Shown here piece after piece: positions 1,711 to 62,285 of a stretch of 64,000 nt of DNA. The DNA lies in NCBI RefSeq assembly GCF_026210795.1, contig NC_089430.1, positions 1,674,001 to 1,738,000 of the forward strand, written 5' to 3'. The DNA comes from Rhizophagus irregularis (lineage: Eukaryota). Each line of letters opens with the position of its first letter. Position 1 is the first letter of the stretch. The notes beneath the pieces were generated by a model, which ran no database searches, was not told the origin of the DNA, and saw only the letters and a program-made list of their open reading frames with translations. The translations under genes were made by a program, and so were the position numbers.

Positions 1711-3604
1711 TAATCTTACCATTCAGGGTTAATTTATGAACCATAGTGAGTATTAGGTACCCACACTTTGTACTCATGATTACTCAAAATATAAAGTATT
1801 TGTTTAAGAGAAAGCAATATGATATTACAATATGTCAATTTAAGTCATATTATTTACAATAAATTTATCATACTGACAAAAGCTGATTTATTTTGCAATG
1901 CTTAATTTGTATTAATGTATCAGTTTTATCACTTTTTATTTGTATTTTTAGAAATATTTTCTGAAAAAATGTATTATACGCAAATAATTATAATTATTAT
2001 CAAGAAAAAATAAGCATTATTATAATGAAACATACTTAATATAAATATTAAAAAATAAATCATCTTTTGTCAGTTTGACCCACTATTACAAAAAAAAAAA
2101 ATAAACTTTGAATTTTTAGTTTGTTATTTTTTGTAATAATGAGTCAAATTGACAATTAAATTTGCATTAATATATCAGTACAAGTCATATTATTTTTTGT
2201 ATTTAAGATGTCTAATTTCTTACTTTTTTTATAAATCCTATTTGCTTTTTTTATATTTTTTTATAAAAAAAAAATCCTATTTGCTTTTTTTTTATATTTT
2301 TTGAGTTAAAAAAATAATTAATAACTAATCATCATGAGTACAGGTGAAAATTATATTGGTTATGAAGCTCTTGTTTATTACTTAAATGAATCAAAAAATT
2401 TGTCATACCATGGATTTTTGACACTTAACCAAAATATTATTATTGCTTCATTAACTCAACTAACTACTAACTCTTCATTAACATCAGCCAAGTGGCAAAG
2501 CTTTAATATTACTTGGATTAAACACTTTTTGTATAAAGCAAAAGATTAATTGGATTCAAATACTTTTATTGAATTAAAAAAAAAGGTATGTTTTGTTTTT
2601 ATTTTGCAAAGGGTGGGTAACTCCTAATACTCTGCGTAGTCACTTTGTGAGAATTACTGGTCTCGTTCACTTGGTAACCACTCCAGGCTCTCATTCCAGG
2701 CACCCTAACTTTGTTGTTAGTAAAGTCTGCTAATTCTGGAGGAGGAATTGGCTATGTTCCTTCTTTACTACTAAATAAAAATTTAGCATACAATTAACAA
2801 TCTGCTTTCTCATAATAGGTAAATACAGAAGACTCGCAACGTAAGAAAGAGTTGCAAATATTCTGGCAAGAAGTTATTAAGGAATACAAAAAAAGTCAGA
2901 AAATTATTAAAGAATGTGAAAAAGAAAATACTTTTGCCACTGATACATTTCTTCCAAAAAAGTCAGTTAAACATTCTGAACCTTTACAACAAGATGCATC
3001 TTTACTTTCAAAAAATACAGTTTAAAAGTTCTGTTAAAAATCTTTCTAAATCTGAACAACTAGATTTATCTAAAAAGAATATTAAACTTACTAATTTCTG
3101 TTATGATATATTTCATGAACTTGAAAATGAATCTTATGCTAATTTATTTTCTGAAAAGAATATTAAAAATAAGGTTATAAAACATCCAATGGATCTATTT
3201 ACTATAAATTTAAAATTAGAAAATAATCAATACAAAAATTTAAAAGAATTTGAAAAAGATATTCGTTTAATGTTTCGTAATTGTTATACATACAATGATG
3301 TTAAAAGTAAAGAATATTGTTCAGGTGAAAAATTAGAATCTATTTTTAATGAAAAATGGAATGAAAAAATTATTCTTCAAGATAGACAAACAAGAGAACT
3401 GAGAAGAACAAGGGAATGATGCAGATCAATCTTGGAAGAAACAAAGACAAATTTTAGAACAAAATAAAAATAATTTAATATATAGACATGTTATTAATGA
3501 TGCACTTCTTGTTGCTTCAGCATATGAAAGCCTTGTTGTAGGTAATATTGTTAGATGTCAGTTCTTATACGCTTAAAAATAAGCTATGCATTAAAAAATG
3601 TTTA

Positions 3605-10878: not shown

Positions 10879-11336
10879 CAAAAATGAAATTATACCGGAA
10901 TTGTGTGATACGGAATATATTAAAACGCAAATATACAAAACGTATCATTTCCGTATATAGATTTTTTATAAAGCAATCCAAATGATCGACATAATTTATA
11001 AGCTGCACAAAATCTCAGCCAAAAAACAAGTCAATTGGGTGCTAAAAAATTCCGGGTTCAGCACTTCAGGTCTTCAGCGATCTGATAATAAATTACTTGT
11101 CAAATATGGGAATGTAAAAAATGTGATCCACTTATCAACACAGTAACAAAAATTTTCTTTTTTATATTTCCATTAGGGTCACAAAATCTTTATATTATGA
11201 AATTCGGCATATTTCAACGCCAATATTAATTAACTACATATATAAGTGGGGAATTTAATCCCTCCCCCAAAAATTACATTCCTTTTGTAAGATAACATAG
11301 TCGAAAAAGGCAGCCAGTCTACAGACACTAAAAAAA

Positions 11337-11924
11337 ATGACCATACAAGACAATTGCAAGAAGAATTACGTTGCTAATCTCAACAATAACTATATCACTA
11401 AAGTTCTAGCAACCGGTCCTGTTCTAGAGGCGCAACGGGCTACATTTAGTAATCTGTTCACGCAATCTTTTTCCCATGCATACCGTGATTTGCAACTTGA
11501 CCTATTTGACCTACCGCAGGAACAAACTTTGAGTTCATATCTTGAGCATTCCTTTAATGCTACTTGGTCTCTAATACAATCGGGAAAACTACAATTATGG
11601 GTCGAGGTTTCTAGAGACTCTTCGGAACTTGTGGTTGGTTTCATATGTGTCCAAACAAAAGACGATATCTGTTATATCGAGCAGTTTGTAGTTCATCCAG
11701 ATTTCCAACGCATTAAGATTGGTTCAAATCTCATCAAAGCGGTTGAAGAGCGTTACCGTCTCATCTGGCTACATACGCGTCATATTAATGAGGTTGCAAT
11801 TTCATTCTACACGCGAAATGGCTTTATTCGCTCAGATGCTGATGACGGTGATATGGCGTATCCCATTGAGTTTCCCTCACGTTCTTCAAAAACTTTTATG
11901 CTGATGAAAAAAGTGATATCTTGA
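11337..11924 (+). CDS. GNAT-family N-acetyltransferase
   Basis: Acetyl-CoA motif A FVVHPDFQRIKIGSNLI and motif B LHTRHINEVAISFYTRNGF; intronless; TATA-like tatataag ~100 bp upstream. Confidence 0.85.
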   Translation: MTIQDNCKKNYVANLNNNYITKVLATGPVLEAQRATFSNLFTQSFSHAYRDLQLDLFDLPQEQTLSSYLEHSFNATWSLIQSGKLQLWVEVSRDSSELVVGFICVQTKDDICYIEQFVVHPDFQRIKIGSNLIKAVEERYRLIWLHTRHINEVAISFYTRNGFIRSDADDGDMAYPIEFPSRSSKTFMLMKKVIS

Positions 11925-14202: not shown

Positions 14203-15664
14203 TTATTTTTCACTCACCAAATTATGAATAAGTAAAAGCTCTGAATTAATACTATAATTATTGTTATTACTTATTCTAAATTCATCACAAGAAGCTTGAC
14301 TATGGTAACAAATTAATTCATTGCAAGACTCTTGACTTCGTTTAACAAATAATTCATTATTTATCATAGGAAGCAATCTGCTGGTGTATACGGCCTCTGA
14401 ATGTATTTTGATCTTTGGTAGCTTTTTGATCGTACTATGATTTCTATCAGCTTTGCTCCACACATCATCACCTTCAAAAATATCATTCAACCATTTCTCT
14501 ATTTCTCTTACAATATTTGCAATATTTGGCCTTTCATTTGGATTTTTATGCCAGCATTTTTGCATCAGCTCTTTATAACATTCGGGAGTTCCTTCGACGA
14601 TCTCTGGACGAGACCCATCACAGATCTGAAGCGCAAGGTTGAGATCATGTGGAATGTTAGGGAAAGGTCTATGGCCTGAGGATAACTCCCACATGATTAT
14701 TCCAAAACTATAAATATCAGACGCCTGGGTGAACGGTTTACCCTTAACAACTCTGGAGCTACATACAGCATAACACCGTAAACTTTTTTTTTGGATACTG
14801 ATGAGTCTGCAGGATGACACAATCCCAGATCTCCAATACCCGCATAATTTACATCTATGAGGAGATTTCCACTATGAATATCTCTGTGCATCAATCCTTC
14901 TGAATGAATAGTATTGAGACCACGAGCAATATCCAAAAGATGATCAAGACATTTAGACCAAGTCAAGTCAGCAAAGTTTTCAAAAAGATATTTTCCCAAG
15001 TCTCCACGGGCACAGTATTCTAAAACCATTATATATCCTTTGGATTTCGGATCTTGTGAAATGCCGTGACAACGAACAATTTCTGAGCAAGTATTAGAAT
15101 TTCTGTATAATTTTAAGTGCGATGTAGTCTGCAAATAAAAATTATTGTTAAAATTGTAATTTGTAAATAATTAAAATTAATTTACGTATATCGATATTAC
15201 CTACTTAGAAAGTCTGATGAAATGTTATGAGAGTTGTACAGCATTTTCAAAGCAACAGGTACACGTGGCCATCTAAACCATTGTTTCTTCTTGCGATCCC
15301 AATACAGAATAGGTCCATTCGACCAGGTTGCCTTAAAGACTTGCCCAAATCCACCCTTACTAATAAATTTGATGTCAGTGAATTGATCGTAAGGTATCCA
15401 CTCAAATGTACTCTCATAATGGGATGTGTTAATTTGAGTTTTTCTTATAAGTTCATCAATATTGTTGTTACCGCTAGTCCAAGAAGGAAATTTGTCAATA
15501 AAGTGCTGACTATTACAGGATGTACACCACGTACTCCAATCATCACCAAAACTATTCAAATTGCCGCACTCTTTGCAAAATCCATTTTCCGATACTTTAT
15601 TTGACGTTTCAGAGACAGAATACCCTCTATATAGAGCCTTGACCTTTGATATGTGACTATCCAT
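14203..15664 (-). CDS. Tyrosine-kinase-like Ser/Thr/Tyr protein kinase (2 exons, two apparent 1-nt frameshifts)
   Basis: CxxC N-terminus, GGFGQVFKATW, VALK, HRDIHSGN, DLGL, YVAPE, SDIYSFG, CWHKNPNERP; intron 15129-15200; frame slips at the splice donor and at ~14742. Confidence 0.85.
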
Positions 15665-17711: not shown

Positions 17712-19694
17712 ACAATAAGGTAAGTTACATTTGGGATCAAAAATTAGAAATATTGATAACTCTGTGAACTTTAATGACCTGATGATAAGTTTAAAACATT
17801 GTATTCTAGGAATAAAAAAGAAAGTGATTTAAATTTACCAATTTATTTACAAAAACGAAAAAAAATACATCCAACATATGATAATAATAAAAAATACCTA
17901 GCTATTAAATAAGTGTATCAAATATTAGCTGAACTGCAAATATCTTTAACTCATAATTGGCTTATTTCACTAAAACTACAATTTATTATTAATCAACCTA
18001 ACAAGGATATGGTTTCTCTTTAGTTTCTCGATAATTTCACCAGTTACAAAAGATATTTCACTTGTCACTTCCATACTTGGCATTTTCGTACTTAACATTT
18101 CCCGATAACTACTATTTAAAAAATCATTTTAAAATAAGTAAAACTTTGAATTAACTTCATTTTTATTAATATTTACTAACCTTAGAGCAAAATATATAAA
18201 TCCTTTATTTGAAAATCAATGAGAAAATTATCCTAAGACCAAGTAATAAGAAATACTTCCATGAATTGGTTGTTAATCCTATTGAATGAGTAAGAAATAT
18301 AAGAATTAAAAAAAGAAAACCGATTACAAAACAAAATTTCCCTCAAATTTTTTAACGTCCGTTTTACAGGAGGATAACGTATAACCTCAATTTTAATATT
18401 ATCACTAGAATTATATTGAACTGAGTTGTAAATGATTTATTGTTATTTATTAGAACTTATCTATGTTTAAAATTTTTGAGACCATCGTTACCAAATCATA
18501 AACAATTGATTAACATGCCATTCATTTAACATTAAAATTTGTTTTGTTCCACATTTACCAAAAAAGTATTAATCATAACTTTAATTAGACTAGTTTGTAT
18601 GTAGTATACTGCTACGTATTGCTGTTTCATTGGCCTTGTTAATTTAATCATCATTCGTATTCATTCCCTTTTCTAATTGAAAATATCAAGCTTTTTCCAA
18701 TTTTTTAATATATTTTCTCTTAATAAACAAAATTTTGTTATTTTTCTTAAAAGTACTATCATTACAGTACTCTTTAAACCTTCAAAAGTAATTTAGTCCA
18801 GTCTTGATAATGGTCTTTAACTTATTCTAAAATTCTTTCTTATTATCTGTAATTTGATTGTTCATATTTTTTATTCTATGGGTTCCATTAGTTTTTTCCA
18901 TGATTCCTTTTGATTATTTCTCTTACATCATCTAAAAGTAAATGCTCCTTGTTTTTATTCTTGTCTTCTCTTACTTTAAAATTTTTAATTCTTTTCTATT
19001 ATGCTAAATATTTCTACTTTTATTATCGTAAAAATGGTCTTTATTAAGATAAGATCCTTATTTATAGTGAGTATTGTATTTCTGGTTCTACTTCATGATT
19101 TGATTCTGTCCTACTATCTCGCCACGCCGTTCTTTTCAATTTTGCCCTTTCTATTTTTAAATTTATGATTCTCTCAATAATTATTCAATTCGTTATTTGT
19201 TAAATATTCATGAAAAAATTGTCTTCCATTATTATCATATTGGTACGCCTTTTCCTATATTTTAATTTTTGTTACAGTAAAATTGTTTGTTCTTATATGT
19301 AGTATTTAATTATAATAACATTTGTTAAATTATAACCTTTCTATAATTTTTTTTCAATGATTTTTTATTGTCATATTTGTGACCTAAGATTATACAGTAG
19401 TTATTTTCTTTGTATTTACCGTAAATGATATACTAATTCTTTCATCTTCTGTATAGATGACAAGATCTATTCCATTGTTTTGGTAAACTCAGATATTCTT
19501 AACCCGTATTCCCGTAAACCATTTGTTCATTTTATGGTAGAGACCACGTGTTATAAAGCACGTGATTTGAGCATCTGATCATTAGTGTTACACTGTATAT
19601 CCGCCGAACTGCAGAATGCATATTACGCAATTTATCACATGTGGTACGTAACACCCTTAAAACGTAAAAGTATAAATTACTCTTTGCCCTACGT

Positions 19695-20262
19695 TGTAAT
19701 GCCGTAGTATACATAGTAAATTTATTAATTGTGAGGCGCAGTATTATATTTAATCTTAGTGTATAAAATTTTAATTTATTTTTAGTTGTATTAATAATTA
19801 GACCGAAAAGTCGTTAAACTATTGATCAGGTGATTCAAGGATAATTGGTCCGAGATGACATTAAACTATCAGTCACGAGATTTAAGGATAAATAAAGATC
19901 CGAAAGATACTAAATTAAATGAAGTCAAGTGATCTGAGGTGTCAAGTGATTAACTTGCTGATCATTACTTTAATATTATAAATCATAATTCAGGAGGTCA
20001 CGATGATCAAATGGATACAGAATTAAGATAATGGAAATACTTTGATAATTTAAATCCATGAATCGAAATTATGAATTTGGTTACACTAAAACAAATATAA
20101 AAGGGTGTGAAGATCACCTTTTGAGAAGGACATTCTTGGATGAATTTCAATTTAATGTTATTAAACCAAGCATATTATTGTATTTATTTATATTATTAAT
20201 AAAGAGATATTTTGTTAATACCTAAGGTGGCAACGTGATTTATCACGGGCTTAGGTGTTACA
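19695..20262 (+). repeat. 5' LTR (568 bp)
   Basis: TGTAATGCC...GGTGTTACA; matches the 3' LTR except a net 21-bp indel and one C/T difference seen by eye. Confidence 0.95.
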
Positions 20263-20264
20263 AG

Positions 20265-20282
20265 TGGTGCATGCTCCGAGAA
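20265..20282 (+). promoter_or_regulatory. Primer-binding site, probably tRNA-Gly
   Basis: TGGTGCATGCTCCGAGAA, 2 nt after the LTR; its complement TT-CTCGG-AGCATGC-A-CCA has tRNA 3'-end geometry, and GCA-starting acceptor stems are typical of eukaryotic tRNA-Gly. Confidence 0.8.
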
Positions 20283-20791
20283 AGGAAAAGTGATCATCCT
20301 CACATGATCACTACAGGTTACGAATAGGAGGATTTCCGAGAAAAGAAATGATCATTTATCACATGATCATCACAGGAAAAAGATTTAAAATCTTTCACCT
20401 AAGGATCGACAAAATTAAGAAGTTATAAAATTAAAAAGTTTAAAGTCTTGGTTGAAAAAGAATTTAAAAATGTATTAATGTTAAAATTTTAAGATATGCG
20501 AAAATAAAGGTTACCGATAAAAAAAATATTAATTCGAATAAATATAAACATGTAGGTAAAAATAATGTTCATAAATTATAATTTTTGATCTAACTTGACC
20601 ACCGGCTGATATGTCAATGAAAAATTATTATTACAATAATTTCCATGCATATGAATCAAATATGCATGGCAGTAATTGATTATCAAGGGAAATGCGAGGC
20701 TAATCAAGTTAGAAGGGGTTTTGAATAAAAATATTGTAAATAATTGAATGAGAGGATTAAGATTAAGTCTTGTATGGACTTTGATCATACT

Positions 20792-20938
20792 AAGTGTACC
20801 CAGAGCTGACACTATAAATTAAGATGGCGGGGATAATATAAAAGTGTACCCAGAGCCGACACTATAAATTAAGATGGCGGGGATAATATAAAAGTGTACC
20901 CAGGGCCGACGCTATAAATTAAGATGGCAGGGTTAATA
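20792..20938 (+). repeat. Three tandem 50-bp repeats in the retroelement 5' leader
   Basis: aagtgtacccagagc(t/c)gacactataaattaagatggcggggataatata at 20792, 20842 and 20892. Confidence 0.9.
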
Positions 20939-21584
20939 CTGTGTGATTCTGTGTGATTCTGTGTGAACTCAATTGAGGTATTCTGTGTGATCAATTGGGA
21001 ATAGGTCTGAGAAGGACCTTTAAAGATAATTCTGTGTGAACTTAGCTAAGAATAATTCTATGAGGGTACCCAAGAAAAATTATGATTAACGTTAACAAGA
21101 ATTAAAAATATTTGCTGGACAAATATATTCAAAGAAAGTTGTTAAAAATTAATAAGGATATAAATGATAAGAGATTTTGTAGCGTAGTAAAATTATATAA
21201 AATGTTAATACAGGTGTCGAGATTATTAATTAAAGATTATCAAAGCACAGTAAATTTTAGGATATAATAGAATTAGAGGCGTAGTAGAAGTATATGAAAG
21301 AGGGAGATTTGAATCTCCCACTTATTAAATGAATTGTTGACACCGTGGAAAGATACATCAGTCTTGGAAATACAACAAATAATCGGACAAATCAAATATG
21401 GATTCACACTTCAACCTTAGGTTGGAAAATTTTATGGAATATAAATTTATTTGTACAAACCTGTAAACTACCATACTCAGTAATGAACAAATGAGGTAAA
21501 GGCAAGCCCAGTATAGGTCAAATAAAATATAAAAGAAGGATAAAAAGTAAAAGATGTGAAAATTTTCAGAGAATTTTATTAAAA

Positions 21585-24500
21585 ATGGAATGGTACCATG
21601 TTTGGAATGCTGGATATATAAACCATAAACAAGAACACGACCTAGGAGTGATAGAACCAGAGGAATGTTTAGCATGTGAAATATGTAACCCAATAGAAAG
21701 AGAAGTATCAGCAGCATTCAAGAAATTTTGGGATGCTTTATTTAAATTTAAGGATACAATACTAATGTACAATAATGTGACACATAAAGAATTATTGAAT
21801 TTATTAAGTATGGACAATAGAGAAAGGGAGGATACAATACATAAAGGAAAATGTAGGAATATAGTAGATAGAATAATTGAATCAATAAGGTACAGACAAC
21901 AACCAAAAATGAAAGAAAAAGGTTTAAGGATAATAATTGTAGTAATTGTAAGGGATTGTATTGAAGGAGACTTAGAAAATGAAGTATTTGACCGATTAAT
22001 TGGATGTCCAGAAATAATGGAACATGGATACATTTTAGAAGATTGGGATGTTGAAAATAGATTTCAAAAATTTTGGGATTGGTATAACACGATATTGGAA
22101 AATGAAATGAAAGCAATACATGTTAAGAAGTTAGCAATAAAGTTATTCAGGGATTTATTATATGAAGAAACAGAAGATCTGTTGAGGAGTGAAAAGGTAG
22201 TTGAATTAATACTCCAGATAGAACATCAGAATAGATGTGAGGCAGACACTCAAGAAGGAAAGGATGCATGGAAGAGATTGATGCAGAAAGTAGGACAAAG
22301 ATTTATTGACACCAAACAATTTACAAGGGAACCTGAGGACCCAGAAAGTGATAGTCCTGAAAGTTATGAACTAGAGGACAGTGATGGTAGTATACATTAT
22401 GAAATAAAAATAGAGGACAATGTCGAATGGACAGTGGAATTATTAAAAAGAAAAATTGAAGAAATGGGTGGAAGGTTCACTGACAAAGATATACAAAGAA
22501 TGTGGGACCTAAGGATAAGGATAGAATTGATATTAACAGAGGATTTTTTAGGTACATTTTTCGAATTAATGGGACTAAGTGATGAAAAATTAAAAGATGA
22601 AATAAATGAATGGTTGACAAAAGAAACATTGAGATGTGGAAATTGTAGAAATAGAAAGTTACCTGATATGATAGCAGACATTGGACAATGTAAAATTTGT
22701 GAACAAAAAGAATTATTAGAATTAAAGGATGACTTAGAAAAACTAGGATACGAATTAAATGTGTCAGAAATAGAGAGAATAAGAAAATTCAGGATAAGCA
22801 ATAGTATAATATTAACAACGGAATTTATGGAAAAATATTTCCAGGAAATTGATACGAATGACAAAGAATTAAGGATAAAATTATATGAATGGATAAATGA
22901 AAATACCACATTTTGTAATGAATGTGGAATAAGATGGATGAACAATAAATTTGACGAAGGAAAAACCAAGTGTAGGGATTGTGAGAATGACGAAAATGAA
23001 ATTGATATCAGGGTCAAAAGATTAAAACAAATATGTGATGATAATAAAATAGAAATAACTGATGGAGAGTTATTAAGGTTAATCAGTATGGGATATACTG
23101 ATGGAGAAATATTGGATCAAGAATTTATTGAAATATTCCAAGGAAATAAAAATGATTTGGAGAAAAATTTAAAACGGATATTGGATAAATTTCTAAAACA
23201 ACAAGCTGGAATTGAGGATAGTGAAAGTAGTGGAAATGAATCTGATAATGAAAAATCTGATGGATCTGAAAAAGAATCAGATGGATCTGGAAAAGATGGA
23301 GAAATTTTAAATCCAAATGATACCGATAGCAATGAAAATTTTGAAGAACCTTATGAAGAAAACATTATAAATAGACCTGGTTTTGACTCAAGTGAAAGTT
23401 CAGAACCAAATTCTGAGGATAAAAGTGAAATATCTGATTATAATATAGAAAATTTATCTGAAACACCTTTAACACCACCGATACCACCAATCCCACCAAT
23501 AGTACCAATAATTATGGGAGCAACAAGAGCTGAAGTAAGGGAAGATTTTAGAGCGGCTTTACTAGCAGCAACGGGACATGATATAGGAGGTAATTGGGCT
23601 GGATTAGTCGCAGCCAACCCATTAGCAAATGCAATTGAGGATGCAGGAAATGTAGCTGGAGGAATAATTAGTATGCCACAATTTTATGGAAAGGAAGAAG
23701 AAGATGTTAATGATTGGGTAAGACAATTCGAAATAGCATTTACTGCTATAGGAAAAGCAGCAGGAGTAAATGGAGCTAGACAAGCAGCAATGGCAGCTAC
23801 CTGTTTGAAAGGTGCAGCAGCACAATGGTATAATGAAAAGAAGGAAGCAAACAATGGTTATTTGATAAATTGGCAAGATAACGATAATGATAATGATTTA
23901 AAACATAGGATTAAACAAAGATTTACCAGGGAAGATGTTAGAAAAAGGAAAATGTTAGAATTAAGGAAAATAACACAAGGAGTAAATGAAAATGTTGAGG
24001 CATATACGATAAGGTTTAGACAAATATTAAGGATAGCTACCAGAGGCCATGCATTAGATGATGAATTACAAGTGGATAATTATATCGAAGGATTAACACC
24101 AGAATTGGGATATCAAGTCAGAAGACAAAACCCAGCAAATTTAAATGATGCAGTGAATACAGCAAGAAGAGAGGAGGAAGCTACTAATGAATTAATAAGA
24201 AGAACACGTAATATACCAGTTAGTACCCAAAGAAAAGGAATTGATATACAGGATGACAAGCCAAAGAATATATTTGAAAAACCATTGGAGAAAAATTATG
24301 AGGATGACCTTACCGAGATGTTTAAAAAATTAGAGGTAAAATTGACAAATCAACTTAGTGGACAAAGGAGACCACCAAATAACAATAGACAAGGACAACC
24401 ATTGCGAGCATGTTATAAATGTCAACAACCAGGACATTATGCAAGGGAATGTAGAGTAAATAATGGTCAAGCAAACTATAGAAGACCAAACAACCAAAAT

Positions 24501-25169
24501 TATAATAAAGGACCAAATAATTATAATGGAAGATCAAATAATTATAACAGACAACCAAATTACCAAAATAATAATCGAGGATTTAATACGATGGAATTTG
24601 ATAACTATAATGATTACAATGACCAATACGATTACGATGGCCAAGTTTATCAAGATGATTATGACCAAGAATACAATTATGGTGACCCATATTACCAAAA
24701 CAATGATATAGTATTTAACCATGTTGATCAAGATTTTTATAATAATCCAAGACAAACAAGGAGTAATATAAAAAATAGGTCAAGTGATCGAGATATAGAT
24801 ATGGAAATTGATCGAGAACAAGCACGCAGAAGAAATGATAAATATGCCAGTCAACAGAATAAGGCAGCAGCATTACCAAAAAGGGGATTTACTAGTGAGA
24901 GTTTGAGAAAAGCTCAGGAAACAAAAAGAAATAATAATACATGTGGAAATTGTGGACAAAAAGGTCACTATGCATCAGAATGTAAAAATGAACGTGTTGA
25001 AGGTATTCATAGGACAAGCGCATTTCAAAGAAATATACCAAAATATAACGTATTAGAGGATATGAAAAGTACCAGAGCAAATGCAACTTTTTCACAAATT
25101 ATAGATATAAGCCCAGAACAAAGAAAAATATATTATGATGGTATGAGAAGATATCCACAAGTAGATTGA
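21585..25169 (+). CDS. gag: Gag polyprotein with long N-terminal extension and two CCHC zinc knuckles
   Basis: Capsid-like FYGKEEEDVNDWVRQFE...LKGAAAQWY...QGVNENVEAY..RF; knuckles CYKCQQPGHYAREC and CGNCGQKGHYASEC. Confidence 0.9.
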   Translation: MEWYHVWNAGYINHKQEHDLGVIEPEECLACEICNPIEREVSAAFKKFWDALFKFKDTILMYNNVTHKELLNLLSMDNREREDTIHKGKCRNIVDRIIESIRYRQQPKMKEKGLRIIIVVIVRDCIEGDLENEVFDRLIGCPEIMEHGYILEDWDVENRFQKFWDWYNTILENEMKAIHVKKLAIKLFRDLLYEETEDLLRSEKVVELILQIEHQNRCEADTQEGKDAWKRLMQKVGQRFIDTKQFTREPEDPESDSPESYELEDSDGSIHYEIKIEDNVEWTVELLKRKIEEMGGRFTDKDIQRMWDLRIRIELILTEDFLGTFFELMGLSDEKLKDEINEWLTKETLRCGNCRNRKLPDMIADIGQCKICEQKELLELKDDLEKLGYELNVSEIERIRKFRISNSIILTTEFMEKYFQEIDTNDKELRIKLYEWINENTTFCNECGIRWMNNKFDEGKTKCRDCENDENEIDIRVKRLKQICDDNKIEITDGELLRLISMGYTDGEILDQEFIEIFQGNKNDLEKNLKRILDKFLKQQAGIEDSESSGNESDNEKSDGSEKESDGSGKDGEILNPNDTDSNENFEEPYEENIINRPGFDSSESSEPNSEDKSEISDYNIENLSETPLTPPIPPIPPIVPIIMGATRAEVREDFRAALLAATGHDIGGNWAGLVAANPLANAIEDAGNVAGGIISMPQFYGKEEEDVNDWVRQFEIAFTAIGKAAGVNGARQAAMAATCLKGAAAQWYNEKKEANNGYLINWQDNDNDNDLKHRIKQRFTREDVRKRKMLELRKITQGVNENVEAYTIRFRQILRIATRGHALDDELQVDNYIEGLTPELGYQVRRQNPANLNDAVNTARREEEATNELIRRTRNIPVSTQRKGIDIQDDKPKNIFEKPLEKNYEDDLTEMFKKLEVKLTNQLSGQRRPPNNNRQGQPLRACYKCQQPGHYARECRVNNGQANYRRPNNQNYNKGPNNYNGRSNNYNRQPNYQNNNRGFNTMEFDNYNDYNDQYDYDGQVYQDDYDQEYNYGDPYYQNNDIVFNHVDQDFYNNPRQTRSNIKNRSSDRDIDMEIDREQARRRNDKYASQQNKAAALPKRGFTSESLRKAQETKRNNNTCGNCGQKGHYASECKNERVEGIHRTSAFQRNIPKYNVLEDMKSTRANATFSQIIDISPEQRKIYYDGMRRYPQVD

Positions 25170-25709
25170 CTACAAGAACCAATAAATAACATTGAAGCTG
25201 AACATTTGACAGCATTAAGGGGTAAACTAATAATAAATCAAGAATTGAAGGATGTAATGTTTGATACAGGGGCAGCAGTAAATGTAATAACTAGTCAAAT
25301 AATGGATGAAATGGACCTAAGAATTGAAGAGCCAAGTACAGTAAGATGTGTGATGATAAATGAGGATAAAGTAGCATCAAGAGGTACCACAACAATATAC
25401 ATACAGTTTGGGGATAAGGAGATACCCATTAAGGTCGAAGTAATTGATTCTGGAAAGAATGAAATTGTGTTAGGGAATGGAGTATTAGATATGTTTAAGG
25501 CGAATATAGATTACACAGATAAAACAATAATACTTAGAATGGATGATGAAACCATGGATGTACCAGTAAAATATATACAAAAGACCATCAAAGGATTCGA
25601 AGAGACATTGATTGAAGATGAATTATTAGATGAATTATACCAAGATGAATTATACAATATATATGAAGATGATTATGAGAATTATGAAAATGAAAATTTT
25701 AAAGTATAA
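25170..25709 (+). CDS. Retropepsin-like aspartic protease, in frame with gag after a single TGA
   Basis: Active site MFDTGAAVNVI and IVLGNG motif; no ATG start upstream of the domain (ORF-track start is TTG). Confidence 0.88.
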   Translation, partial: LQEPINNIEAEHLTALRGKLIINQELKDVMFDTGAAVNVITSQIMDEMDLRIEEPSTVRCVMINEDKVASRGTTTIYIQFGDKEIPIKVEVIDSGKNEIVLGNGVLDMFKANIDYTDKTIILRMDDETMDVPVKYIQKTIKGFEETLIEDELLDELYQDELYNIYEDDYENYENENFKV

Positions 25710-27184
25710 GTCTTGGTCAGAATGATACTGAAGAGACGATAAAGAAGCATAAAAATGACCATGAAAAATTTATTGAAAAATTTAAAGTAGGGGATATAAC
25801 CAATGAACAAAAGGGTAAATTAAAAGTATTAGTAGAAAAATATAAGGATATATTTGAGTACGATGGTGAAAAATATAACAGGACAAATCTAGTGAAACAT
25901 GAGATAAGACTAAAAGAAGGTACTGAACCGATAGCTCAAAAGAGATACAAAGAAAACGACGAAAAAGGTAAATTTATTAGAAAAGAGGTAGATGAAATGG
26001 TAAAATTAGGAAAAATTAGAGAATCCAGAAGCCCTTGGTCTTCACCAGTGACTTTAGCAGGAAAAAAGTCTGGAAATTATAGATTTTGCATCGATTATAG
26101 AAAATTAAATAAAGTTACAATAGCAGATGCATATCCATTACCAAGGATTGACGAACAATTAGAAAGGATAAGCTCAGGAAAATGGTTCACAAGCTTAGAC
26201 TTAGCATCAGGGTTCAATCAGATAGAGATGGCCGAGGAAGATATTGAGAAAACAGCATTCATATGCTCAGCAGGATTATATGAATATAATGTCATGCCAT
26301 TTGGGTTAACAAATGCGCCTGCAAGTTTTCAAAGGTTAATGGATAAAGTATTAAAGGAATACCTGAATGAATTTGTAATAGTGTACATTGATGATATAAT
26401 GATATATTCGGAAAATTTTGAAGACCACCTAAAACACATAAAGTTAGTGTTAGAAAAATTAAAGGAAGCCAGTTTAATACTAAAGTTAAAGAAATGTATA
26501 TTTGGAAAAACAGAAATAGAATTTTTAGGACATGTAGTTGGTAAAAATGGATTAAAACCAAGTCCAGGAAAAGTCGAAAAGATACAAAAATTAACAGCAC
26601 CTACAAATATAAAAGGTGTAAGGTCAATATTAGGATTATGTACGTATTATAGAAAATTTATTAAAGACTTTTCAAAAATAGTAAAACCAATAACGTCTTT
26701 ATTGAGAAAAGATGAAAAGTTTGAATGGGGTATCAAACAACATGAAGCATTAGAAATATTAAAAAGGAAATTAACCGAAGAACCAGTGTTAAGACAACCA
26801 GATTGGTTAAGGAAATTTATATTAATTACAGATGCTTCAGGAATAAGATTAGGGGCAGTATTAGCTCAAAAAGATGATAAAGGTCAAGAATACGTAATAG
26901 AATATGCCAGTAAAAGTTTAAACAGGACAGAACAAAGATGGCCAATAACTGAACAAGAATGTTATGCAATTGTATGGGGAATACAACATTTCCATAAATA
27001 CTTGATCAATAGAAAATTTGAGGTAGTGACAGATCATGCAGCTTTGAAAGGATTGATGACTGCAAAAGTACCAAAAGGAAAGAGATCAAGATGGGTCATG
27101 GAATTAGAACAGTATGATTTTGAAATAACCCATAGACCAGGAAAAGAAAATAAAAATGCGGATGCATTATCAAGAATAATATAA
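25703..27184 (+). CDS. pol: Reverse transcriptase + RNase H
   Basis: SPWSSP, RFCIDYRKLN, LDLASGF, MPFGLTNAP, YIDD, TDAS, EQECYAIVW, TDH, NADALSR; frame open from 25703. Confidence 0.95.
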   Translation, partial: SISLGQNDTEETIKKHKNDHEKFIEKFKVGDITNEQKGKLKVLVEKYKDIFEYDGEKYNRTNLVKHEIRLKEGTEPIAQKRYKENDEKGKFIRKEVDEMVKLGKIRESRSPWSSPVTLAGKKSGNYRFCIDYRKLNKVTIADAYPLPRIDEQLERISSGKWFTSLDLASGFNQIEMAEEDIEKTAFICSAGLYEYNVMPFGLTNAPASFQRLMDKVLKEYLNEFVIVYIDDIMIYSENFEDHLKHIKLVLEKLKEASLILKLKKCIFGKTEIEFLGHVVGKNGLKPSPGKVEKIQKLTAPTNIKGVRSILGLCTYYRKFIKDFSKIVKPITSLLRKDEKFEWGIKQHEALEILKRKLTEEPVLRQPDWLRKFILITDASGIRLGAVLAQKDDKGQEYVIEYASKSLNRTEQRWPITEQECYAIVWGIQHFHKYLINRKFEVVTDHAALKGLMTAKVPKGKRSRWVMELEQYDFEITHRPGKENKNADALSRII

Positions 27185-27273
27185 ATAGATAGGTAAAAGA
27201 CTTGAGACTCAAAAATATATAACAAAAGAGTTAAGCAGGATAAATAAATTGAAATTACCCGAGCAATGTAAAA

Positions 27274-29055
27274 ATGGGACCTAAAATAATAATTATATGT
27301 GGAGTTGATGGTACTGGAAAAACATTCATCGTAAATAAACTTATAAAAGAATTTGAAAAAGTAGGACAAAGTGTGAGGTTTAACACCTTTAAAAGGAGAA
27401 GAGAGGACAATGATAAGTATAAAATACCAAAGAAAGGTATAGAATGGGAATTCAGGAAGGAAGTTGTCGAACAAATCAACAGGAGAATGGAAGAACATGA
27501 TAATGAGGATTGGTTAATATTAGATAAAAGTCCTTATAGTGAGTACTTTTATCAACAGACACCATCATTTGATAGAGGATACATATCAAGATATGAGAAC
27601 CACCTATTAGAAAAGGAAATATTTAGGAACAAAAGGATAATTGATGAATCAATAGTGATATTTTTAGAAAATGAAAAATGTTGGGAAAATTACAAAGGTA
27701 GAGAATATTCGAAAAAGGATCAAGGACATAAAACATCATACCCATTGTTAAATGAAGAAAGATATATGGAGATGGTGAAATCATTTAAAGAATGTCAAGA
27801 TATTTACGAAGGAGAAAAATATGCTAATATTAAAATATCAAATAATGACACAGATTGGGAAAGAGTATATAATAAAATAATAGAATTAGATGGAGATAAA
27901 CCACCAATAGAGGTTAAAAATGTTGAGATTAAGGATAACATCAGAGTAACTGATGGTAAAAAGTATATTGAGAAAAATAGTAAAAACATCAGAGTAATAG
28001 AAGACTTTGAAAAGATGGGAGCATTATATTTGGCTCACAGTCATGAATTATCGGCACATATGGGAATCAAAAGTACTTATGATAATTTAAAAGATAAATA
28101 TTATTGGGAAAATATGCTGAATGATGTTGAAAGATATGTAAGGACATGTGATAAATGTCAGAGAAGAGGAAAACCACAAGGGAAAAATGAATTACACCCA
28201 ATTAAAGTAGTAGAACCATGGTATCAAATCGGGATTGACTTTGTCGGACCATTGAACACAACAACAAATGGTAATAAATACATCATAGTAGTGATGGATT
28301 ATTTTACAAAATGGCCAGAAGCCAAAGCAGTAAAAGAAGCAACTGCTAAAGAAGTATCAAAATTTATTTATGAAGATATCATCTGTAGACATGGATGTCC
28401 AATGAAGATATTGAGTGATAGAGGAAGTCACTTTAACAATGAAATGATTAAAGAATTAATGGAAAAATTCAGGATAAAATGGAATTTTTCTACCAGTTAC
28501 CATCCAGAAACAAATGGATTGGTTGAAAGATTCAATCGAACATTAGGTCAAGCATTAGCAAAATTATCAACTAAGGATGATTGGGATCAAAAGATAGCAC
28601 CCATATTATTCGCCTACAGAAATAAAAAGCACAGTTCAACAAAAATTCGACCATTTTATCTAACATATGGAAGAAATGTACGGACAATAATGGATGAAGA
28701 TATCAAAGGAATCAACCTAAGTGACAGAATAGTTGGATTATTAGAAGAATTACCAAAAATCTGATATGAAGCCAAAGAACAAATATTAAAATCTCAAATA
28801 AAACAAAAAGAGTATCATGACAGAAAAATAATTAAAGAACATACCTTTGGAATTGGAGATAAAATATTACTTTATGATAAAGCCAAAGCACAACAATTAT
28901 CTGGAAAATTGGAATCAAAATGGTTGGGACCATTTTACATTCATGAAATACTACCAAACGGAGCCTACAAAATTAAAGATATTAAGGGTGTAATCAAGAA
29001 AACACCTGTAAATGGAGAATTGTTAAAGACTTACCATACACCGATGAGTAAATGA
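27274..29055 (+). CDS. P-loop nucleotide-kinase-like domain fused to integrase (one in-frame TGA at 28762-28764)
   Basis: N-terminal IIIICGVDGTGKT and LILDKSPYSEYFYQ; then HHCC finger (HSHELSAH...CDKC) and DDE core (IDF, SDRG, GLVER); after the stop, QIKQKEYHD and KWLGPF. Confidence 0.9.
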
Positions 29056-29273
29056 TAACCATCATCAATGGACTTAGAAAAATAAAGATAATTTATAATC
29101 ATGTGAAATAAAATCACATGACATAAAAATAATTTTGGAAAAATAGGAAAAATTAATGAAAATTTCCAAAGAAAGACCTAAGTGAAATCCGGTACAAGAA
29201 AACCGTGAAATTCAAAAGAACACATGACAAACCACGGGAACAGCTGCAGGACGCAGCTAAGTCAAGTAACAAC

Positions 29274-29335
29274 GCATGCTTGATTTAGTAGTATAATTCG
29301 CACCTACCACTTCGAGACACGAGTTCGATTCTTAG
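29274..29335 (+). tRNA. Degenerate tRNA-Gly-like sequence lacking the 3' acceptor strand
   Basis: GCATGCT-TG-ATTT-AGTAGTA-TAAT-T-CGCAC-CTACCAC-...-ACGAG-TTCGATT-CTTAG: A-box-like and B-box-like motifs and a Gly-type anticodon loop (ACC). Confidence 0.65.
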
Positions 29336-29368
29336 AATAAATTTAATGAGGGCATTAAATTTTCATGC

Positions 29369-29377
29369 GGGGGATAG
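29369..29377 (+). promoter_or_regulatory. Polypurine tract
   Basis: GGGGGATAG immediately before the 3' LTR; preceded by a 10-bp-stem hairpin at 29339-29362. Confidence 0.75.
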
Positions 29378-29378
29378 T

Positions 29379-29967
29379 TGTAATGCCGTAGTATACATAG
29401 TAAATTTATTAATTGTGAGGCGCAGTATTATATTTAATCTTAGTGTATAAAATTTTAATTTATTTTTAGTTGTATTAATAATTAGACCGAAAAGTCGTTA
29501 AACTATTGATCAGGTGATTCAAGGATAATTGGTCCGAGATGACATTAAACTATCAGTCACGAGATTTAAGGATAAATAAAGATCCGAAAGATACTAAATT
29601 AAATGAAGTCAAGTGATCTGAGGTGTCAAGTGATTAACTTGCTGATCATTACTTTAATATTATAAATCATAATTCAGGAGGTCACGATGATCAAATGGAT
29701 ACAGAATTAAGATAATGGAAATACTTTGATAATTTAAATCCATGAATCGAAATTATGAATTTGGTTACACTAAAACAAATATAAAAGGGTGTGAAGATCA
29801 CCTTTTGAGAAGGACATTCTTGGATGAATTTCGATAATGAATTATTTATTAGTTATTTAATGTTATTAAACCAAGCATATTATTGTATTTATTTATATTA
29901 TTAATAAAGAGATATTTTGTTAATACCTAAGGTGGCAATGTGATTTATCACGGGCTTAGGTGTTACA
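29379..29967 (+). repeat. 3' LTR (589 bp)
   Basis: Direct repeat of 19695-20262. Confidence 0.95.
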
Positions 29968-30172
29968 ACGTTGTATTAACTTTACGTAATAATATTGATT
30001 GTATTTTTTCTTATTGAGACGTCCCATTAGGTTTAAATATGTTTCGGAAATACAAATGCAATTCATTAAGACTTTATGCATAAATGTAACAATATTTAGA
30101 TATACATTGCCTATAAATACACAATAAAATAAGTTAAATATTCATCTTACAAATTCGCCACACGAATTCGCT

Positions 30173-31378
30173 ATGAAAAATTATCAAAGAATTAAAAAGC
30201 AAAATGTTCATGATTTTATCATGTTCAAGAATGGGATTAACCACAATACTATTAAAAAGAAAACTAGTGGGATATCAAACCTTTTGAATTTTATCATTTG
30301 GAATATTATGTTCTTTTCACTATTTCCACTTGCTTCAGCATCAATTGCATCATTTGTTGACATAGATTATGTATCACATACAGATTTGTATGATGCAATT
30401 CTCAACACATTTTTTCCAATTTTTTTTGTGATTTTTCTCAATGCTTCAGGTAAAGATGGGTCCATCAAAAATATAGTATTACCATTACTAGATGATGTAT
30501 TGTATAATATGATCACTTGGGTGATTCCATTTGTAGTTTCTTTTGCCTATGATGACTTGATGAGCATAAAGATATTTTCAATCATAAACATGTGTTTACA
30601 TTTAATTTGCGCATTTCTCGTAATAATTAAAGGAAAAAGAATTGGTTATTTTGCTGGTGATCACTATGATTATAATTATGAGGAAACTTTCTTTGGTTCA
30701 ATTTTTTTTTTCTTGACACTTTTTCCAGTTCTAGTTATTCCAATATTCTGGATAATTACCATCACACATAAACATATTTTTAATTCAATTTCTATAATAT
30801 TTCTTATATTATTCGGAATATGCTTAGTTTCTTTTGTGTTATTTATAATTGTTATTATAATTGAAGATATGGGTGGCATGACGCAAATGGTGGCATGGAG
30901 AATATATTATGTATTATCTATTATATGTTTTTATTTTCCAAATATTCTTCAAACATTATTGATTACATTATTTTGGCCAATCAATTTTTACTTTGTTAAA
31001 GCATGCGTGTTTATACTGATTCTATCATTAACAAGAAATGTGTCCTATTTTGTTGATAAGATTCCTGGTAACTTTCTGGCTACTTCAACAACAATGACTC
31101 AATTTTTTATTAAGGCTTTTACAACAAAAAACATAAAAGAAAATATTAAGGGAGCACAAATATCAATAGAAGAAATGCAGGAAAAAATTTTAAAAATTGA
31201 TGGGATGCAAACGAAAATTGACAAAATTGATGAGATACAGGCAACAATGCAGACAACAACACATACAATTGATGATATGCAAAAAACAATGCAGACGAAA
31301 ATGGATGAAATACAGAAGATAATGGATGAAATAAAAACATCAGTGGAGGAGACAAAAAAAAATTCAACCAAAGGATGA
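30173..31378 (+). CDS. Multi-pass membrane protein with C-terminal coiled coil, unknown function
   Basis: 401-aa ORF with roughly 8-9 hydrophobic segments and a heptad-like tail (MQTKIDKIDEIQ...MQTKMDEIQ); TATAAA ~60 bp upstream. Confidence 0.8.
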   Translation: MKNYQRIKKQNVHDFIMFKNGINHNTIKKKTSGISNLLNFIIWNIMFFSLFPLASASIASFVDIDYVSHTDLYDAILNTFFPIFFVIFLNASGKDGSIKNIVLPLLDDVLYNMITWVIPFVVSFAYDDLMSIKIFSIINMCLHLICAFLVIIKGKRIGYFAGDHYDYNYEETFFGSIFFFLTLFPVLVIPIFWIITITHKHIFNSISIIFLILFGICLVSFVLFIIVIIIEDMGGMTQMVAWRIYYVLSIICFYFPNILQTLLITLFWPINFYFVKACVFILILSLTRNVSYFVDKIPGNFLATSTTMTQFFIKAFTTKNIKENIKGAQISIEEMQEKILKIDGMQTKIDKIDEIQATMQTTTHTIDDMQKTMQTKMDEIQKIMDEIKTSVEETKKNSTKG

Positions 31379-59140: not shown

Positions 59141-61439
59141 TTGACTATCGGCCAAATTTATAAATATTGGCCAAATTTATAAATTAATTTTGATAATTCT
59201 GATGTTATAATATTATTTTTACATTTTAGTTTAATTTTACATATATATATATATATATACTATATAAGGAAATTATGCAACTTTATGCATTAAGGTTACA
59301 CAAAGTAAATTTAGGTTTAAAATAAAGCTATACACATCAGGAATAATACTATGGAATCAAAATTATAAAATCTATAAATAAAAAAAATACTGTTATATTT
59401 AGATTACCTGTATAAATAAATTTAAATTGTATAACATTACTCCTATTAGCATTTTATCACGTGACATTATGCGAATTCCTAAAAAATGGAAATTTTGCAT
59501 AAAAATAGGAATTTTAGTTTTGCAAGTATTCCAAAAAAAGGAAATTTTACTTCTTATAAAAATAGGAATTTTGGTTTTGCAAATATTCCAAAAAAGGAAA
59601 TTTTTGCACTGATTATATAATTCTGGCCAGAATTAAAAATATTGCCTTTTGTTATGAAGTAATAGGTCATAACTAGTAATTGATTTTAAAGATTTGTTTA
59701 TTTTAAATAATAATATTTTATTTAAATTGAAATAATATCAATAAAATAATATCAATTAAATTTTATTAATCTTCTTTGTATTTTTATAAATTATATAACA
59801 AATTTTATTAAAATTAGAATAATTTTAATTAAATTAATTTTATAGTTTAGCTTAATAAAGTAGTAAAATATTGTATAAATTTATTAATGATTTTTTTTTA
59901 AAATTTTATTATAGATGCAGTCTTATCATATTATAACTATCATAATAAATTTATTAATAATATTAAATTTTTTTTTAATAATTTAAAATTAAGTATTTTT
60001 TATATATATTAATTTTAGCTAAAATATAATTTAAACTAAAATCCTTATAATTTTTGCCAAAAATACTTATTTTTGAATAATATTTAATTTTAAAAAATGA
60101 TTTTTTTTTAATATTTAATTAATATATATATTAATATATATTTATTATATTATATATATTATATTATTATTATTAGAAGTTATTTTAACATTACACTTAA
60201 AAAAATTATAAAAAAATATAAATATAAAAAAATGTTGTTTGTATTATGTTTTACAATTTATACATATAAAAAAATATTTTTTATGAATTTTTTTAAACTG
60301 TAACTTTTTTCCAAACATACTATTAACTTCCAAAGTTTTATATTTTTTTATTTAATAACTTTAGAGTGTAATTTCACTAGTCACCACTTTAGTCAAATGA
60401 AATCCTTGTATATTAATTTTTATAAGTGTATGTATAATAGGACCCAAACAATATATATATATAGGTCAGATGAAAAATTCAAAATTTACTAAGGTCAATA
60501 AGCAAATATTTTTCATGTTTACTAAGCAAACTTTTATCTAACCCATAAATTTTTTACATTGCTAAGCAACTTATTTTATGACATATATATATATATAATT
60601 TTTTTTATAAAATATGTATATAAAAAAAACTAAAAAAAAACAAAAATTTTTGAAATAATGCATGGATAAAGCTATTATTATTTTTTATTTTTTTTTTGTA
60701 ATATTATAAATGTTTCTTATAAATATTTTCGTATATCTGTTCTGTAACTTCGGAGCGTAATTTAGGCACTTCGGTCAAAGGATACGTCCAAAACCTTCTT
60801 AAGTAAAGTTGTTCAGCATGTTCGAATCTACTTATATACAAATTTTTATCATTATTGAATAGATATTTGTGGATTTATTCATGTTTTTTGTAATGCTACC
60901 AATACGCGGAATTTTTATTTTTTTAAAAAAAAATTTCTAAGTAAAAACGAAATAACTTTTATTGATTATTACAAAAATTATAGTGTAAAATTAAAAAAAA
61001 AAACCAGAAAAACACTTTTTCCCTTTTCACCCACCTGTTCTTCTCATATATTTTTTTTAGTATTACACAGACGCGTATATGTTATATTTTAATGTTACGC
61101 AATCACGTATTTGTTATGTCAAAAACATGTTACACGATCACGTCTAGTAAAAATGTTTCCTGTATCACGTATACAATTAACTAGTACACAAATATGTTTA
61201 TAAATTTGTTTACATTATTTTATTAAATTTTTTTAATGTAAAAAAATGAAAAAAATGTAAAATATATATTGTATTAAAAAAATCTATTCTACTACACAAA
61301 TATGTATCTGACTATTATTTTAAAATTATGTTATCAAATAAGCAATAATAAATCTCTCATAGGAAAAATTTTTATATTTCAACTAAGAAAACTCAAAACT
61401 TACATTTATATATATTGTTTGAGGTTCTGGTATGATACA

Positions 61440-62285
61440 TATAAAGAAACCCATATTTTTTCATAATAGTATTAACTTTCAATTTTTTTATTTATTTATT
61501 AACTTCAGCACATAATTTTACCACTTTAGTCAAATAAAATCAACTTTTTAAATTAATTGAAAATTGTTCAGCAAGATCAAAACCACTTGTATATTAATTT
61601 TTATGGGTATAGGTATAATACATATAGAGAAACCTACATTTTTTATAATGGTACTAACTTTCAAATTTTTGTTCTATTTATTAACTTCAGCACGTAATTT
61701 TACCACTTTAGTCAAATAAAATCAACTTTTTAAATTAATTAAAAATTGTTCAGCAAGATCAAAACCACTTGTATATTAATTTTTATGGGTATAGGTATAA
61801 TACATATAGAGAAACCTACATTTTTTATAATGGTACTAACTTTCAAATTTTTATTCTATTTATTAACTTCAGCACGTAATTTTACCACTTTAGTCAAATG
61901 AAATCAACTTTCTAAATTAATTGAAAATTGTTCAGCAAGGTCGAAACTACTTGTATATTAATTTTTATGGATATAGGTATAATATATATGGAGAAATCTA
62001 CATTTTCATAATAGTACTAACTTTCAAATTTTTTATTTATTTATTAACTTCAGCACGTAATTTCATCATTTTAGTCAAATGAAATCAATTTTCTAAATTA
62101 ATTAAAAATTGTTCAGCAAGGTTGAAACTACTTGTATATTAATTTTCATGGGTATAGGTATAATACATATGGGAAAATCTACATTTTTCATAATAGTACT
62201 AACTTCCAAATTTTTCTTTTTTTTATTTACTAACTTTGGAGCGTAATTTCACCACTTTAGTCAAATGAAATCAACTTTCTTTATT
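61440..62285. repeat. ~182-bp tandem array (~4.5 copies)
   Basis: taacttcagcac(g/a)taatttt.ccactttagtcaaat recurs at ~61499, 61681, 61864, 62045 and (diverged) 62230; a further diverged copy lies near 60300-60440. Confidence 0.9.

Follow-up and report, generated by a model that had tools for sequence, protein, structure and literature searches.

A conserved nucleotide-kinase-like P-loop domain at the RNase H-integrase junction of Gypsy retrotransposons in Glomeraceae

Throughout a Gypsy retrotransposon clade of the Glomeraceae, the junction of RNase H and integrase carries as conserved cargo a P-loop domain with the predicted thymidylate kinase (TMPK)/deoxynucleoside kinase (dNK) fold. Its partner varies: the domain is joined to the C-terminus of RNase H, stands as a free ORF or is joined to the N-terminus of integrase, a form that occurs only in one young subfamily of Rhizophagus irregularis. 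Codon comparisons show purifying selection on the kinase domain as strong as that on the integrase. We give about an even chance to the reading that it is a conserved, ATP-dependent (d)NMP kinase-like accessory enzyme which would raise the dNTP supply for reverse transcription.

The element and its reading frames

We analyzed a 64-kb stretch of DNA, here called the window, in which the domain lies inside a complete Gypsy-type LTR retrotransposon (19695-29967). Its features, in window coordinates, are:

19691..19694, + strand: 5' target-site duplication ACGT (from sequence; repeated at 29968-29971)
19695..20262, + strand: 5' LTR, TG...CA, 568 nt
20265..20281, + strand: primer-binding-site-like sequence beginning TGG (from sequence)
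21495..25169, + strand: long gag ORF, first ATG at 21585, with an N-terminal region of ~640 aa, capsid and two CCHC knuckles
25170..25709, + strand: aspartic protease, in frame beyond the TGA-CTA stop of gag and probably reached by readthrough
25703..27184, + strand: reverse transcriptase (RT)-RNase H ORF, in a frame different from that of the protease
27274..27891, + strand: TMPK/dNK-fold P-loop kinase domain, aa 1-206 (sequence profiles, predicted structure)
27301-27324, + strand: kinase P-loop
27523-27555, + strand: kinase DKSPYSEYFYQ
27892..28761, + strand: linker and integrase HHCC and DDE core, in the same frame as the kinase
28762..28764, + strand: in-frame stop (TGA), in this copy only
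28765..29055, + strand: C-terminal part of integrase, GPF motif/SH3-like domain
29367..29377, + strand: polypurine-tract-like sequence (from sequence)
29379..29967, + strand: 3' LTR, 589 nt
29968..29971, + strand: 3' target-site duplication ACGT

The domain order gag-PR-RT-RH-IN with HHCC, DDE and GPF motifs, the last of these beyond the copy-specific stop, is that of Ty3/Gypsy, and the TG...CA ends of the LTRs together with the target-site duplication are as expected of a Ty3/Gypsy LTR retrotransposon. The LTRs, already described in a preliminary description of this DNA as a matched pair around the kinase ORF, differ by two mismatches and one 21-nt indel, and because they are near-identical and have ACGT on either flank, the insertion is recent. 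No tRNA gene was found within the 64-kb window, and the C-terminal part of the integrase (28765-29055) gave no chromodomain match. The ~640 aa N-terminal to the capsid (21585-23500) have no Pfam match and contain several CxxC pairs and one acidic stretch. Gag ends at a TGA with CTA next to it, a context that we take to be of readthrough type, and the protease follows in frame both in the window (25167-25172) and in a metagenome locus (L011:372-377). Protease and RT use different reading frames in the window (25703-25720), as they do at L011:887-900 and L019:60-75, with AAGTCTTGG conserved at the junction; an early RT ATG is absent in the window, and entry into RT by frameshift or splicing is conceivable. 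The sequence AGTCTTGG occurs three times in the window, always inside the Gypsy element.

Elsewhere in the window, a 416-aa ORF, rich in hydrophobic stretches and ending in a coiled coil, begins 160 nt past the 3' LTR (30128-31378) and has no significant Pfam match. Pieces of host genes encode a bromodomain, a GNAT acetyltransferase and a Tyr/Ser-Thr protein kinase (2823-3419, 11301-11924 and 14203-14871), and a long inverted repeat at 61439-64000, with arms of 536 and 308 nt at 97-98% and 182-nt tandem units, is foldback- or MITE-like.

The RT-RNase H and kinase ORFs are kept apart by a stop and an 89-nt spacer and lie in different frames. As first described, a P-loop and a downstream motif open the ORF after RNase H: from the ATG at 27274 it carries IIIICGVDGTGKT (aa 5-17) and LILDKSPYSEYFYQ (aa 81-94), and behind aa 1-206 the integrase follows in frame, with Pfam matches to Integrase_H2C2 (aa 251-299, E 1.7e-17) and rve (aa 318-411, E 6.3e-11). 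That description had also read one uninterrupted HHCC-DDE-GPF frame; HHCC and DDE are indeed in frame, but the TGA at 28762-28764 divides the DDE core from the GPF/SH3 tail (28765-29055), so that the ORF is not open to 29055. Arg occupies this position in each of the nine full-length 593-aa R. irregularis paralogues fetched, which come from the 15 members listed for a cluster of 47, and the stop is therefore specific to this copy. The nearest proteins, at 97-98% identity, are from R. irregularis, which makes this fungus the likely source of the window. Other copies diverge upstream of 27266 yet retain the 8 nt preceding the ATG, a pattern consistent with 27274 being the real start.

Distribution and architecture of the kinase family

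Two word-index searches returned 36 and 40 relatives, and a profile search over 1.84 billion representatives returned 45 at E<=1e-10. The named relatives come from R. irregularis, R. clarus, R. diaphanus and Glomus cerebriforme, and the remainder are metagenomic. RT/RNase H or integrase adjoins the kinase in 20 of 22 metagenome loci, the other two being contigs of about 1.1-1.2 kb. Kinase and RNase H occupy one ORF in five loci (L002, L004, L009, L011, L013), and the kinase is a separate ORF in at least eight (L003, L010, L012, L015, L017, L019, L021, L022); the remaining loci are cut or unclear on the 5' side of the kinase. At none of the 13 loci with a downstream integrase do kinase and integrase share an ORF. 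These loci do not support treating the integrase fusion, on which the preliminary description centred, as the essence of the element.

A quick tree with 121 rows groups the window sequence and its paralogues in 13 rows (SH-aLRT 100) that adjoin free-standing kinases with a support of 85-88, below the starred level, and so suggests that the integrase fusion is derived; the architecture labels of this tree derive from motif patterns, and its "KIN" label includes truncated rows. Further candidates for kinase-integrase fusion (P0012/P0197, P0081, P0095 and P0097), of which P0012 is the one other row with a kinase-integrase label in the tree, were set aside as likely gene-model joins, because the last helix of the kinase or more is missing from them and the cluster mate P0196 ends there. 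Pattern searches, which reach close relatives only, found no family members in viral contigs, GTDB genomes or phage records; two viral-contig loci matched over only 35-48 residues around the P-loop, and the phage records gave weak TMPK matches (best E 8e-3).

In one subclade, a conserved ORF of ~48-52 aa follows the kinase (L001:863-1010, L002:2254-2410, L006:679-829, L009:977-1118, L018:634-778) and in L006, L009 and L018 lies between kinase and integrase; the two of these ORFs examined have no Pfam match. At L014:670-1086, kinase and integrase are separated by an ORF for an F-box protein (F-box E 2e-5, above the cut-off), and for this reason the kinase-integrase junction may be regarded as a cargo slot.

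An ORF of at least 25 aa begins between -8 and +6 nt of the kinase stop in 14 of the 18 loci that have such a stop (raw count), with stop/start overlaps in the form of ATGA five times and of TAATG once, and the integrase itself starts within -8..+6 nt of the kinase stop at L003, L004, L007, L010, L011, L012, L015, L016 and L020. This spacing suggests a polycistronic pol that may be read by termination-reinitiation, a process that occurs in fungal viruses and in the SART1 LINE. The kinase would then be made together with Pol, through fusion or through stop-restart coupling, and the fusion in the window would represent a stop-restart junction converted into a linker.

Selection on the kinase domain

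The kinase codon set comprised the window sequence and 18 of the 22 loci, with L017 left out for a stop and L020-L022 for short matches. Over these 19 sequences and 201 codons, omega was 0.040 (GY) or 0.067 (MG), next to 0.050 (GY) and 0.067 (MG) for integrase in 12 sequences and 0.045 (GY) and 0.077 (MG) for RNase H in nine. The kinase log-likelihood was -6447.8 with omega free against -7185.7 at omega=1, and the Nei-Gojobori ratio was below 1 in every one of the 168 unsaturated pairs (of 171), with a median of 0.21. For the fused subfamily, contigs of four runs were mapped onto it: of 20 variant sites in the kinase domain, 14 are synonymous, where random transitions would lead one to expect 31% (p=0.0004). 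Among the remaining six are a stop and a site whose reads probably belong to a different subfamily and were cross-mapped. Kinase and integrase distances are correlated over 12 elements (Mantel rho 0.54, p 0.0002); the correlation of kinase and RNase H distances over seven elements is not significant (p 0.077).

Conservation of the domain with dN/dS below 1, a check proposed at the outset, is thus borne out (kinase 0.04, integrase 0.05), and the decaying single insertion that had been named as the refuting case is excluded. A passenger gene fragment without function would fit the integrase stop in this copy and the fact that some copies are broken (L017; one stop variant), but an omega of 0.04, dozens of diverged intact relatives (43-67% identity) and a conserved position stand against it; the selection test refutes this explanation, which keeps next to no probability.

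Fold of the kinase domain

An AlphaFold2 (AF2) model built from the 41-sequence alignment has a mean pLDDT of 91 over the kinase domain and predicts a five-stranded P-loop core with NMP-binding and lid regions. Membership in the TMPK/dNK superfamily is secure and assignment to a family is not. A VIA structure search over 48,161 chains, independent of Foldseek, placed Staphylococcus aureus thymidylate kinase at the top (Z 15.9, rmsd 3.1, 178 aligned), followed by Giardia deoxyadenosine kinase (dAK; Z 15.3, rmsd 3.2, 189 aligned), human dGK (Z 15.0, rmsd 3.4, 194 aligned), Thermus TMPK (Z 14.7), Drosophila dNK (Z 14.5), NadR (Z 14.2 and 13.4), the PPK3 homologue ST1543 (Z 13.6) and a PPK2 (Z 12.0). 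Adenylate, shikimate and tRNA kinases scored at about 10-12, with PSTK at Z 10.4 and Kti12 at Z 10.0, and T4-type polynucleotide kinase was not among the best 50 VIA rows. TMPKs and dNKs also lead the Foldseek rows on PDB, where Giardia dAK ranks first, and on viral models. Identity to solved kinases is 10-19%, and 12% to the top structure. The fold proposed in the preliminary description is therefore supported by whole-domain matches at Z 15-16, in which TMPK and dNK are tied, and by Foldseek and PHROG 761; because TMPK, dNK, NadR and a PPK3 homologue all fall within Z 13.4-15.9, the fold leaves the substrate unfixed.

Among sequence profiles, PHROG 761 "thymidylate kinase" is the only strong whole-domain match (aa 3-195, E 2.3e-12). 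Pfam Thymidylate_kin is matched at E<=0.01 by 36 of the 41 family members and Pfam dNK by five, and all members fall short of the TIGR00041 dTMP-kinase cut-off (best E 4.9e-8). The window protein stays below the curated cut-offs of PF02223 (21.2 of 27 bits) and TIGR00041 (21.6 of 83 bits), and as an isolated domain scores 27.2-27.3 bits against the cut-off of 27 for Pfam AAA_28 (NadR-type). KTI12 is weakly matched by 29 of 41 members, in the window protein over aa 5-90 only. Matches to PPK2 profiles cover the P-loop alone (E about 0.03), and FtsY matches were rejected for covering the P-loop alone. Profile alignment (hhalign) gave probabilities of 98.9 for a TMPK-like set and 98.4 for a dNK-like set, both small and taken from matches to the family's own profile, and hence biased towards it. 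Atlas neighbours of the homologue P0079 are phage/bacterial TMPK-like and AAA_28 clusters (0.92-0.94), which we regard as leads only.

Active-site residues

Residue conservation was taken from 41 aligned sequences with gaps excluded, and residue equivalences were set by alignment and by eye. The P-loop pattern [ED]GxDGxGK[TS] of thymidylate kinase is present, with D or E in 34 of 39 sequences, D12 in 38/39, G15 in 40/40, K16 in 39/40 and T/S17 in 40/40. The residue ahead of the P-loop is D in 31, C in 5 and E in 3 of 39 (two gaps), so that the Cys of the window copy, first noted as a caveat, is a minority variant (5/39); the replacement of DR by DK, noted alongside it, proves to be family-wide, the arginine of the DRx motif being Lys in 41/41 sequences. 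PMC12995831 describes this arginine as essential in dTMPKs and PPK2s and its loss as the explanation for inactive rPPK3; the DRx motif is also named in PMC8679000. D84 and the lid arginine R143 are present in 41/41, and the invariant set comprises N37, K40, R43, F60, R61, N69, R71, DKSPY, Y91, Y93, W137, N139, Y140 and R143. Within it, a basic cluster of K40, R43, R61 and R71 (41/41), with R or K at 41 and 42, aligns with the dTMP-binding place of TMPK.

The element kinase resembles thymidylate kinase (PF02223, TIGR00041, PHROG 761) in fold, P-loop and D-x-x-x-x-S-x-x-x-Y-Q spacing, the P-loop and the S-x-x-x-Y-Q part being recognizable against the Aquifex TMPK, but it has DK for DR and FKRRR for (R)EP. 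In the alignment with Aquifex TMPK, R61 falls on the Arg of FxxxR, with the aromatic shifted and EP missing. Its likeness to dNKs (PF01712; Giardia dAK 8puu, human dGK 2ocp) extends to the fold and several core motifs, with W-x-F-R, DKSPYSE and RG-x-IS as the segments that look dNK-like against Giardia dAK; it differs from them in a TMPK-type P-loop, in the missing EP Glu and in an Asn at the first lid Arg. The Glu of the dNK EP motif is catalytic, and the post-beta2 segment NTFKRRR has no Glu where dNKs carry it. The dNK lid pattern is RxxxRxRxxE, and the lid here, W-x-N-Y-x-x-R-E, keeps one Arg; DKS replaces the [ED]RS motif of dNKs. Since the DR arginine is always Lys and the dNK catalytic Glu is absent, the family matches neither the canonical TMPK nor the canonical dNK type. 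A deoxynucleoside (salvage) kinase would account for the correspondences seen by eye (W-x-F-R with F-x-M/F-Q, DKSPYSE with DRSIYED, RG-x-IS with QG-x-MS), for the first rank of Giardia dAK in Foldseek and for the hhalign probability of 98.4, but NTFKRRR is without Glu and only five of 41 members match Pfam dNK, and we consider this assignment improbable.

Proposed function

On the (d)NMP kinase-like reading, which takes up the dNTP-supply idea of the preliminary description and fits best, the kinase would use ATP to phosphorylate a (deoxy)nucleoside monophosphate, and the raised dNTP pool would serve the element's own reverse transcription. Since the catalytic Glu of dNKs has given way to a basic stretch, the acceptor is probably a monophosphate and not a nucleoside; its base may be that of dTMP or another. 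The base composition of the element, 43% A in this element alone, fits a demand for dTTP. The enzyme may work in or near the particle, as retroviral and fungal Gypsy dUTPases are thought to do.

The preliminary description had also suggested that the domain acts as a nucleotide sensor for integration. With RNase H, no partner or integrase beside it, and with none of 13 loci integrase-fused, such a role is unlikely; a partner that changes freely and may be missing altogether agrees better with an accessory enzyme that is diffusible or packaged. The same facts bear on a wider proposal, that of a non- or weakly catalytic nucleotide-binding pseudokinase which regulates or scaffolds particle proteins, an integration sensor included. 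The invariant Arg-to-Lys change in the catalytic clamp speaks for it, as does a dNK-fold pseudo-enzyme (complex I NDUFA10) among the structural matches; the partner is not fixed, however (RNase H at five loci, free ORF at at least eight, integrase at 0/13), the P-loop, D84 and the lid Arg are kept, and Lys preserves the charge. We judge a pseudokinase unlikely.

The basic cluster, which by alignment lies at the dTMP-binding place of TMPK, admits two other interpretations. One is a polyphosphate-using nucleotide kinase analogous to PPK3, which would draw on host polyphosphate to make nucleotides. Arbuscular mycorrhizal fungi store much polyphosphate, and ST1543 and PPK2 are among the structural matches (Z 13.6 and 12.0). 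TMPK-fold proteins with a basic cleft at this place proved to be polyphosphate kinases (PMC12995831), and the element kinase is like PPK3 in its TMPK fold and in a basic surface replacing the dTMP-binding residues, in its own case by alignment only. Unlike it, the kinase has Lys where catalytic PPK3 and PPK2 retain the DRx Arg (PMC12995831), and no signature in common with PPK3 emerged; TMPK and dNK structures score above PPK3/PPK2, no sequence-level affinity to PPK3 was seen, and PPK2 matches the P-loop only. We think a PPK3-like enzyme decidedly unlikely, and lend little credence to the more specific idea that a new DK-motif kinase subfamily uses host polyphosphate as donor and would so tie transposition to the phosphate status of the symbiont. 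The other interpretation is that the cluster binds nucleic acid, in a kinase that acts on polynucleotides or tRNA ends and repairs the 5'-OH ends of primers or cDNA. Weak KTI12 matches in 29 of 41 members and a weak PHROG polynucleotide-kinase match in one Nudix-fused relative agree with this, but PSTK (Z 10.4) and Kti12 (Z 10.0) lie well under TMPK/dNK and the KTI12 match in the window protein is limited to aa 5-90; an end kinase is accordingly very improbable.

Origin of the domain

Outside the family, the relatives that come next (24-44% identity) are metagenomic and have the same DK-motif kinase behind a MutT-like Nudix domain (P0034, P0089, P0090, P0114, P0144). P0199 also belongs to this family of Nudix-kinase fusions, and 71 members make up the cluster of P0089. 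In the predicted structure of P0089, residues 18-172 adopt a Nudix fold (Z 16.3, rmsd 2.2, 127 aligned) and residues 174-383 a dNK/TMPK fold (Z 14.9). As the nearest outside relatives carry a Nudix hydrolase, they point to nucleotide metabolism. No Nudix-kinase proteins of 689-2000 aa were present among the matches listed. Past the Nudix-kinase relatives, only generic TMPKs and dNKs follow, with similarity down at E about 1e-5, which makes capture of a host thymidylate kinase gene unlikely; the profile search of 1.84 billion representatives gave no close match of the kinase to a recognizable host Cdc8/TMPK. The PHROG 761 match suggests that the ancestry may be phage- or bacterium-derived, and in the quick tree the outgroup branches are too long for placing the family among TMPKs or dNKs. 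A ~45-aa N-terminal extension of the Gypsy kinases was considered as a remnant of the Nudix C-terminus, but support fell short: the extension aligns there, and the Nudix fold stops directly ahead of the kinase, but an HMM of the extension alone, tried on 11 proteins, beat all 200 shuffles in just one, P0102, a protein without a Nudix match, and two other proteins gave 7 and 9 of 200 shuffles.

Relation to other retroelement cargo

Large DNA viruses and phages commonly carry nucleotide kinases, and many nucleotide-kinase rows from these sources occur among the Foldseek viral models. Among retroelements, the dUTPase of non-primate lentiviruses is placed between RNase H and integrase and has been linked to replication in cells that do not divide (PMC4531489); in fungal Gypsy elements the position of dUTPase varies (PMC2864245). 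The element kinase is comparable as an accessory domain of nucleotide metabolism in the same RNase H-integrase slot as lentiviral dUTPase; it differs in being a P-loop kinase and not a hydrolase, of unrelated fold and chemistry, and in often being a separate ORF and not part of Pol. An orchid AlkB is similarly a fixed extra enzyme domain of one Gypsy lineage, but of another enzyme class and close to host genes (PMC9289625), whereas the kinase gave no close match to a recognizable host Cdc8/TMPK in the profile search.

In the open literature we found no description of a retrotransposon-borne thymidylate or deoxynucleoside kinase; supplements, repeat libraries and subscription journals may mention one, and some family members already carry the automatic label "thymidylate kinase". 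The accessible parts of three AMF transposon papers (PMC11075540, PMC11952901, PMC8647823) have only protein-kinase gene families under "kinase", and the word is absent from those of PMC3248453, PMC6416283, PMC6431247 and PMC9289625. In the literature searched, the nucleotide-metabolism cargo so far reported for LTR retroelements is dUTPase, to which the kinase adds. Its family defines a divergent subfamily with an invariant DK motif and a basic acceptor site, and the modular stop-restart pol of the clade, with a cargo slot before the integrase, may be a second oddity. If the (d)NMP kinase-like reading is true, dNTP supply would limit retrotransposition in these fungi, and the element would supply the remedy itself.
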